DNA of 64,000 nt from Octopus sinensis (taxonomy: Eukaryota), in NCBI RefSeq assembly GCF_006345805.1, contig NC_042997.1, positions 98,332,001 to 98,396,000 of the forward strand, written 5' to 3'. Position numbers: made by a program. Of the stretch, positions 1,165-2,121 are shown in pieces; the first letter of the stretch is position 1, and each line of letters starts with the position of its first letter.

Positions 1165-1213
<49 letters not shown>

Positions 1214-2078
1214 AATTAAGGACTGAACACGAAAAGTGGACCGTCAACATGCTAGATATAGACGTCAAATCGCCATTCTCCACAAAAAGTCTATGTTCTC
1301 AGATCAAACTCAACACCAAACCAAAACAATAAACAAGTGAAAAATATACGAAATAAATATTTACCCATGTACTGATCTGAGAACATAGACTTTTTGTGGA
1401 GAATGGCGATTTGACGTCTATATCTAGCATGTTGACGGTCCACTTTTCGTGTTCAGTCCTTAATTGGTATATATAAATATTTTAATCTTCGGATTCTTTC
1501 TTTAATATGCTAGACCCCTGGTTCTAATTGATAAATATCAATTTTTACCCTTAATTTAATTTTATATAAATATTTGTTCTCTAACCGATAAATTAACTGC
1601 TGCTAACTATTAGCTGCAGGCTAGTTTTCTCGGGTCTCATCGCGCCAAAATAAAGACATTTGAAATATATATTTCAAATGTAATAGGCCGTACTCCATGC
1701 ACGCGTTATTTCGGTATCGTGTTGGCATTTAGTACAGCAAATTACATTTTATATGGGACCATGCTGATGATGGCTGCACTTTTCCTTGCGGAAAATAACA
1801 GCCGAAACTAAATTTAGTACATGGGTAAATATTTATTTCGTATATTTTTCACTTGTTTATTGTTTTGGTTTGGTGTTGAGTTTGATCTGAGAACATAGAC
1901 TTTTTGTGGAGAATGGCGATTTGACGTCTATATCTAGCATGTTGACGGTCCACTTTTCGTGTTCAGTCCTTAATTGGTATATATAAATATTTTAATCTTC
2001 GGATTCTTTCTTTAATATGCTAGACCACTGGTTCTAATTGATAAATATCAATTTTTACCCTTAATTTAATTTTATATA

Positions 2079-2121
<43 letters not shown>

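Follow-up and report, generated by a model that had tools for sequence, protein, structure and literature searches.

A (TA)n insertion of a non-coding hammerhead element in Octopus sinensis and its probable relation to Penelope-like elements

Craig (2021, PMC8557442) described Penelope-like elements (PLEs) as inserting into microsatellite or AT-rich targets in the form of partial tandems, next to which stands an inverted 5'-truncated copy, with a tail on one side only. Frangieh (2024, PMC11167929) reported that the PLE protein cleaves and extends both strands in vitro, and that reverse transcription begins at two internal sites which bound the tail. In the in vitro insertions described there, ribozyme cleavage was dispensable, no reads ended at the cut, and the start sites were not homologous to the target. 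According to Cervera (2014, PMC4209133), PLE hammerheads leave one base unpaired on the 5' side of stem II and combine a short helix I with a long helix II and a palindromic helix III; their activity and role in vivo were called 'still a mystery' in a 2020 review (PMC7761336). The PLEs of Octopus vulgaris are described as recently active, with 31 families and 336 insertions.

The other described system close to our locus is the animal non-LTR retrozyme (PMC7229834, PMC7761336). Retrozymes are small, non-coding, low-GC and highly self-paired, carry a type I hammerhead and occur as more-than-unit copies. The published units are about 170-400 nt long and typically stand in arrays, ranging from dimers to large multimers, through which two ribozymes are available, and PLEs were proposed as their mobilising partner (PMC7229834, PMC7761336). 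According to the review of de la Pena et al. (2020, PMC7761336), the retrozyme repeats show no motif that points to the partner. Li, Clavereau and Pollet (2026, preprint, 10.64898/2026.07.22.740005) presented retrozymes as derivatives of the pLTR of PLEs, based on co-occurrence and pLTR phylogeny in vertebrates. The kind of element that we describe, its insertion signature and the PLE origin of retrozymes are therefore already known in print.

In this study, we analysed a stretch of 64,000 nucleotides from Octopus sinensis (the window), which contains no N and has 37% GC. An insertion near its start, named E1, is probably a recent (TA)n insertion of a structured, non-coding hammerhead retroelement of about 510 nt, that is, a non-autonomous relative of PLEs and the equivalent of an animal 'non-LTR retrozyme', mobilised in trans by a PLE RT/GIY-YIG enzyme. 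E1 is like PLEs in its partial tandem, inverted copy, one-sided tail, AT-rich or microsatellite target and two apparent internal RT starts, and its hammerhead shares all four of the features described for PLE hammerheads. On the other hand, E1 has no RT/EN ORF, unlike PLEs. The tails found here measure 77-106 nt, whereas a length of 30-40 bp is published for PLEs; the starts are TA-rich and target-like, whereas those of PAc were not homologous to the target; and helix III has 4 bp in E1, whereas it is minimal in PLE hammerheads.

The resemblance to retrozymes is also incomplete. The E1 unit is non-coding, low in GC and self-paired, with a type I hammerhead and a more-than-unit copy, as in the animal non-LTR retrozymes, but it is 510 nt long, is present as 1.4 units and has one ribozyme instead of two flanking ones, and the related element E3 consists of about 1.07 units of about 522 nt. 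With a single ribozyme, neither a monomer nor a circle can be released from the E1 locus on its own. Whereas the published retrozyme repeats lack a motif for the partner, the E1 insertion bears the inverted arm, the tail and the TA target of the PLE type. The evidence of the 2026 preprint is drawn from co-occurrence and phylogeny and, as its authors state, does not extend beyond vertebrates or to the life cycle, whereas the evidence given here is structural and comes from insertion junctions. Our view is that E1 operates in the manner of the animal non-LTR retrozymes and should be classified among the non-autonomous PLE derivatives. The locus by itself illustrates well a type of element that is already known; it does not define a new one.

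Layout of E1 and its relatives

Positions 1211-2084 hold, in this order, the last part of a (TA)n run, a 162-nt inverted arm, 1.4 tandem units of the 510-nt non-coding element, and the beginning of another (TA)n run. The left (TA)n tract (about 1102-1211) was taken as the target microsatellite of E1, and the right one (about 2084-2126) separates E1 from E2. The arm (1211..1372, minus strand) is the reverse complement of 1817-1978, which corresponds to -3 to +159 relative to the predicted ribozyme cut (+1 being the first base 3' of the cut), and this non-TA part contains zero mismatches. When the microhomology of the TA run is included, the inverted repeat covers 175 nt at 99% identity (1199-1373 paired with 1816-1990). 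On its outer side, the arm blends into (TA)n via the element's own TATATATA (site A). At the inner end, T1373 is ambiguous and may belong to the arm (A1816) or to the direct copy.

The direct part lies on the plus strand. It begins with the first copy of the direct repeat (1373..1574), the start of which equals offset +64 of the upstream unit, and continues with a unique core 5' of the ribozyme (1575..1758), which is collinear with E3, the type I hammerhead motif (1759..1824), a post-cleavage segment (1825..1882), which is present in a single direct-orientation copy and completes the 510-nt unit, and the second copy of the repeat (1883..2084). The two copies are 202 nt long, spaced by 510 and 99% identical; base-by-base comparison revealed two mismatches, 1517C/2027A and 1571T/2081A. 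The homology ends at 1574/2084, the sequences diverge completely from 1575/2085 onward, and the 3' end of E1 was placed at 2080-2084 (site B, TTTATATAAA). The whole can be written as (TA)n - Y'X' - Y Z W X Y Z - (TA)n, where X stands for 1820-1882, Y for 1883-1978 (the same sequence as 1373-1468), Z for 1979-2084 (the same as 1469-1574 except at 1517/2027 and 1571/2081) and W for 1575-1819. The last Z, 1979-2084, is the 'tail', which is found at one end only.

An initial annotation of this locus had proposed the order of (TA)n, 162 bp arm, repeats, core with the hammerhead, and (TA)n, and the comparison of direct and inverted repeats bore this out, including the pairing of 1211-1372 with 1817-1978 and an arm end 3-4 nt from the cut after 1819. 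It had also described the element as lacking an ORF. In agreement with this, six ATG ORFs of at least 30 aa overlap 1211-2084, and the longest, of 67 aa, lies partly inside the TA run; the E1 unit has 33.5% GC and no real ORF. Its view that the insertion is young is also supported. It is reported that retrozyme RNAs fold strongly, and the E1 unit folded as a circle did likewise (-127 kcal/mol, z -4.84, 65% of the bases paired), with the ribozyme fold kept; none of 100 shuffles was as stable.

The window contains 33 (TA)n tracts, which cover 2.7% of it. These tracts are often interrupted by other inserts, among them SINE-like copies and one insert of 408 bp that contains an inverted repeat. The production of (TA)n by a telomerase-like RT through reiterative copying was also considered and appears unlikely, as TA tracts are common (33) and many of them border hammerhead-free inserts, SINE-like or other.

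When the 510-nt unit was searched by BLASTN in the 64-kb window, only the pieces of E1 itself were returned, and no second near-identical unit. A diverged homologue, E3, is located 55 kb from E1. The two are about 40% diverged, and nhmmer aligned them at E 2.2e-13, collinear over unit positions 16-492, with the ribozyme equally placed. E3 has the same layout of TA tract, inverted arm, direct copy with a short partial tandem, and TA tract. Its arm (56669..56748, minus strand) is the reverse complement of 57134-57213 over 80 nt at 94% identity, with the inner end at +73. The direct copy (56749..57309, plus strand) repeats 56748-56787 at 57271-57309, and the hammerhead (56990-57068, plus strand) is predicted to cut after 57061. 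Site A, the outer end of the arm, falls at about +152 to +160, and site B, the 3' end of the direct copy, at about +248 to +265; both are homologous TA-rich positions in E1 and E3, and in both elements the A-to-B segment of 95-106 nt is present at one end only. RNAalifold, applied to the tails of E1 and E3, predicted a single 5-bp hairpin, which lies in an invariant block and shows no covariation.

E2 adjoins E1 within one TA tract. Its direct copy (2131..2483) is on the minus strand and has its 3' end near 2131 (+218); the tail, from 2207 down to 2131, is one-sided and measures 77 nt, and no tandem is visible. The hammerhead runs from 2403 down to 2343 (minus strand) and is predicted to cut between 2349 and 2348; the inverted arm (2484..2617, plus strand) is the reverse complement of 2208-2341 over 134 nt at 97% identity, with the inner end at +8. 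E4 (11167..11710, minus strand) is bounded by a terminal inverted repeat of 52 nt (11167-11218 with 11659-11710) and carries a compact hammerhead from 11360 down to 11313 (minus strand), predicted to cut between 11320 and 11319. Within the window, nhmmer at E<=1 found no similarity of E2 or E4 to E1 or E3, and these two were therefore treated as separate families. MAFFT of E1, E3 and E2 misaligned the ribozymes, and its placement of E2 was doubtful. Short motifs that seemed by eye to be shared were discarded as unsupported.

The initial annotation had read the partial tandem with the inverted 5' arm as the integration signature of PLEs, and this agrees with the insertions described by Craig (2021, PMC8557442) and Frangieh (2024, PMC11167929). 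The partial tandem, the inverted 5'-truncated copy, the one-sided tail and the microsatellite target together support a PLE insertion signature for E1. The same set of traits is found in E3 and, except for a visible tandem, in E2. It has been noted that the inverted and tandem structures of PLEs, as well as TA runs, cause trouble in assemblies (Craig 2021, PMC8557442), and the arm of E1 is 100% identical to its partner, as would be expected if it were a chimeric or mis-joined read structure in low-complexity TA. An assembly artefact of this type is nevertheless very improbable in our opinion, since four loci that differ in sequence and age are alike in structure, their arms carry different numbers of mismatches (0 in E1, about 2 in E2 and 5/80 in E3), and the junctions are clean with 1-nt overlaps.

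Hammerhead motifs and the neighbouring Penelope-like element

In the E1 motif, helix I is formed by CCATG (1759-1763) with CATGG (1820-1824). The core CTGATGA (1764-1770) is followed by an unpaired T (1771) and by helix II, in which GGCTG (1772-1776) pairs with CAGCC (1799-1803); these 5 bp are extended by a second stem of 6 bp. The unpaired U comes after A9, a variant that has been described for PLE hammerheads (Cervera 2014, PMC4209133). GAAA occupies 1804-1807, helix III (1807-1818) has 4 bp and a palindromic AATT loop, and A17 is 1819. The minimum free energy fold of 1750-1835 reproduced the three-way junction at -20.5 kcal/mol (z -2.37). Sequence inspection and descriptor searches thus found in E1 the type I core of CUGANGA ... 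GAAA ... UH with three helices and an open helix I, and the motif is a predicted type I hammerhead that would cut between 1819 and 1820. The Rfam hammerhead models gave no match to the E1 motif, neither at the gathering score nor, in a search of 96 nt, at E<=10. Matches to miRNA-like and snoRNA-like Rfam models around E1 (E<=10) were dismissed as artefacts of the long hairpin made by the arm and the repeat.

Five distinct hammerhead motifs, in E1, E2, E3, E4 and a PLE, were found in the 64 kb, where about 0.01 would be expected by chance. The type I descriptor gave 4 matches in the window and 0 in 200 first-order Markov simulations of 64 kb, and a descriptor allowing a minimal helix III gave the identical 4 matches, again with 0 in the simulations. 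A third descriptor, in which a single base may stay unpaired on either side of helix II, yielded 4 matches against a simulated mean of 0.01 and newly found the PLE motif at 61761-61830. CUGANGA, GAAA and UA are kept in all five motifs, and the helix sequences are unrelated. Over the whole window, none of the five reached the Rfam gathering score. E4 was the only one with a sub-threshold match (Hammerhead_HH9, 16.6 bits, E 0.05, gathering score 52); for E1, E2, E3 and the PLE motif, no hammerhead match was obtained at E<=10. Between E1 and E3, all five comparable pairs of helix I are changed on both sides with the pairing kept, a comparison of two homologous sequences only, and the first three pairs of helix II are identical.

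These observations bear on the view that the structure arose without retrotransposition, either by DNA rearrangement at the fragile (TA)n, such as fork stalling or template switching with an inverted and a tandem duplication as its outcome, or as a foldback or MITE-type DNA transposon that has long terminal inverted repeats and targets TA. TA tracts are abundant here (33, 2.7%) and often interrupted by other inserts, E2 and E4 superficially resemble elements with terminal inverted repeats, and the window contains no near-identical second E1 unit. However, E1, E2 and E3 do not end in an inverted repeat on both sides, as 77-106 nt extend beyond the partner of one arm. Moreover, E1 and E3 have homologous arm and 3' boundaries at about 40% divergence, which independent local rearrangements would not reproduce; the ribozyme cores are kept with compensatory changes in the helices; and the partial tandem is as expected from a more-than-unit template. 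An origin at the DNA level is thus considered unlikely.

A tandem PLE occupies 57459..64000 on the plus strand. Its first unit, 57459-61827, is about 4.37 kb long, the second unit starts at 61828 and runs off the end of the window, and the copies are 99.4% identical over 2181 nt. Its ORF, P0001, has 752 codons and contains an ADKTG motif, a Cys-rich linker (CNCRC..CPL..C) and the GIY-YIG start VIY..YIG. It has 633 relatives at E<=1e-3, the named best matches being from Argonauta hians; the relative P0018 matched the Pfam GIY-YIG domain at E 1e-5, and P0001 itself gave no Pfam RT match. In P0001, YTET takes the place of the YRDD of P0018, and the remainder of the endonuclease is found in a different frame. 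This indicates that the PLE copy of this window is defective and cannot be the active partner.

The hammerhead of this PLE (61756-61835, plus strand) is predicted to cut between 61830 and 61831. The start of the first unit, 57459, is the equivalent of 61828, which lies 3 nt upstream of the cut. The PLE also borders the same kind of TA tract as E1. When E1, E2, E3 and E4 were compared by nhmmer with 57459-64000, the one PLE used for this comparison, no match was found. The 29 nt from the TA run to the start of the PLE array (57430-57458) had no match elsewhere in the window.

Boundaries of the copies relative to the predicted cut

The arm of E1 has its inner end at -3/-4 and its outer end at +159; the direct copy begins within the upstream unit, at +64, and its 3' end is at +261 to +265. 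In E2, the arm ranges from +8 (inner) to +141 (outer), the direct start is at -135 and the 3' end at +218. In E3, the corresponding values are +73 and +152 for the arm, +210/211 for the direct start and about +248 for the 3' end. The arm of E4 extends from +102 to +153, and its 3' end, at +153, is the same end as that of the arm. The PLE array has no arm; it starts at -3 and its 3' end is beyond the window. Three of the five ribozyme-associated 5' boundaries (E1 arm, PLE array and E2 arm) are therefore located at most 8 nt from the cut, and none of the five is more than 4 nt upstream of it. Two, those of E1 and the PLE, are at exactly -3 (-3/-4 in E1). By post hoc hand arithmetic, the chance of a boundary within 4 nt of the cut is roughly 9/510 in E1 and 9/4366 in the PLE, and that of one within 8 nt is at most 17/352 in E2; E1 had been chosen for this boundary feature and is not to be counted in the chance estimate.

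The E1 arm holds the complement of G1817, U1818 and A1819. Since this GTA lies 5' of the cut, the 5' end that was copied is -3/-4 and not +1. The intact cut site was read through in the direct copies of all four small elements, and also in the PLE array. The direct part of E1 crosses the intact 1819|1820, so that this stretch of the template was uncut or religated. The initial annotation had suggested that an RNA processed by the hammerhead was the template. The end of the arm near the cut speaks for this suggestion, and the GTA overshoot, the reading through the intact cut, and the boundaries at +73 and +102 speak against it. We consider a ribozyme-cut RNA as template only partly supported, because of the overshoot of 3 nt together with the crossing of the intact cut by every direct copy, because the boundaries of E3 (+73) and E4 (+102) are far from the cut, and because RT stalling or a transcription start would give the same boundary.

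It is tentatively proposed that, in this genome, the 5' terminus of the cDNA made by PLEs in vivo is fixed by the hammerhead, both for an autonomous PLE and for its unrelated non-coding passengers, with a constant overshoot of the 3 nt GUA. The overshoot could be explained if the RT, on reaching the cleaved 5'-OH end, jumped to the 3' end of the upstream cleavage product, which would still be held by the ribozyme fold; three bases would be copied before the RT falls off.

It is also possible, though we would not favour it, that PLE-type retrotransposition took place and the boundary at the hammerhead came from stalling of the RT at the fold, or from the start of transcription, instead of self-cleavage. 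If stalling were the cause, the RT would halt a few bases into helix III of a folded, possibly dimeric or protein-bound ribozyme. If transcription were the cause, it would begin at a pyrimidine-purine start, at T1815/A1816 in E1 and T61827/G61828 in the PLE. Both precise boundaries are at -3 or -4 with a templated GUA, which a cleaved end at +1 does not predict, and in E2 the arm ends at +8, immediately 3' of a helix I of 6 bp. Long intermolecular duplexes could form through helix III, which is a palindrome in both E1 and the PLE motif, in line with the dimer model of Cervera (2014, PMC4209133). In the in vitro system described by Frangieh (2024, PMC11167929), cleavage required protein and could be dispensed with for insertion. 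A fixed block by the fold would not be absolute, however, as each element has a direct part in which the same RT passed this ribozyme, and it would have to be a coincidence that a promoter sets a start 3-4 nt ahead of the cut in two elements that are unrelated.

Proposed mode of insertion and significance

We return here to the preferred explanation of a non-autonomous element mobilised in trans by a PLE enzyme, from which we infer priming on two strands, with the hammerhead as the 5' limit by its cleavage or its fold. Both strands of the TA tract would be nicked by the endonuclease. The 3' end of the bottom strand would prime at the internal TA-rich site B (about +262 from the cut) and copy 1.4 units of a longer-than-unit or circular RNA, giving the partial tandem; a circular template, as proposed for retrozymes, would equally yield the direct part of 1.4 units. 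The 3' end of the top strand would prime at the second TA-rich site A (about +160), and the cDNA from A would run to the 5' limit of the template at the upstream hammerhead, giving the inverted arm. With two different priming sites, the segment between A and B is expected at one end only, as the 'tail'. The two cDNA ends may then be joined by a template jump, with an overlap of 1 nt in E1 (T1373) and in E3.

In the open-access article texts searched, we found no statement that the boundaries of PLE or retrozyme copies coincide with the hammerhead cut, and nothing on hammerhead elements in cephalopods. The link between retrozymes and PLEs at the level of junctions in a cephalopod, as well as the clustering of 5' ends at the ribozyme, may therefore be new.

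The evidence from the junctions bears on two questions, namely, the role of PLE hammerheads in vivo and the enzyme that moves animal retrozymes. The retrozyme-like elements of this window bear the full PLE insertion signature, and the 5' ends of the insertions, that of the PLE included, cluster at the ribozyme, two of them at exactly -3. The value of the finding is mainly in its testability, as the genome appears to allow the boundaries to be tabulated against the cut sites. If it is true that the hammerhead sets the 5' terminus, these boundaries would be the first genomic evidence of what the hammerheads of PLEs do.

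Hammerhead elements and their tails

The second hammerhead element, E2 (2131-2617, minus strand), lies tail-to-tail with E1, the non-coding hammerhead element of about 510 nt, and a 43-nt TA run stands between them. The inverted arm of E2 is 134 nt long, and its inner end is separated by 8 nt from the element's own predicted cleavage site. When the tail of E1 (1979-2084), the stretch present at one end of the element only, was compared with that of its diverged homologue E3 (57214-57309), the best-conserved block was about 24 nt long, reading TATGCTAGAC(C/T)ACTGGTT(C/T)TAA, and a 5-bp hairpin with no covarying pairs was found inside it. 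This block is a candidate for the site that the reverse transcriptase recognizes.

The fourth hammerhead element, E4, is located at 11167-11710 on the minus strand and has a terminal inverted repeat of 52 nt. A second inverted repeat of about 26 nt (about 11710-11735 with 11623-11650) flanks its left arm.

The tandem Penelope-like element

At 57459-64000, a Penelope-like element (PLE) is arranged in tandem. The unit measures about 4.37 kb, and its copies share 99.4% identity with each other. The element harbors its own hammerhead motif (61756-61835), and the start of the array lies 3 nt upstream of the cleavage site predicted for this motif. The reverse transcriptase motif is YTET, and YRDD is found at the same place in a relative; the endonuclease coding sequence is divided between two frames. 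A stretch of about 29 nt (57430-57458), for which no match was found elsewhere in the window, separates the TA run from the array.

Other protein-coding matches

Reverse transcriptase fragments were found at 12453-14160 on the minus strand (Pfam RVT_1, E 4e-15), where the zf-RVT match was under the cut-off. They are enclosed by a 144-nt inverted repeat of 100% identity (12099-12242 and 15098-15241), and the region probably represents either what is left of a LINE or a further inverted insertion. Runs of (AAG)n and (AAT)n surround the fragments.

A match to Pfam MIP (major intrinsic protein, the aquaporin family; E 1.6e-38) was obtained for an open frame of 243 codons (28702-29433, minus strand), which may represent a gene with a single exon or a retrocopy.

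TA tracts around other inserts

A 408-nt insert (25121-25528) is flanked by two TA tracts, and its right end pairs with an internal segment as an inverted repeat of about 31 nt, leaving a one-sided tail. The layout is similar to that of E1-E3, but the insert lacks the hammerhead core.

A SINE-like repeat about 170 nt long was also observed in several copies (about 240-400, 39007-39177, 44256-44426 and 46390-46560), with a TA or TATG microsatellite continuing from one end. The TA tracts of this genome are thus common to several kinds of retroelement.
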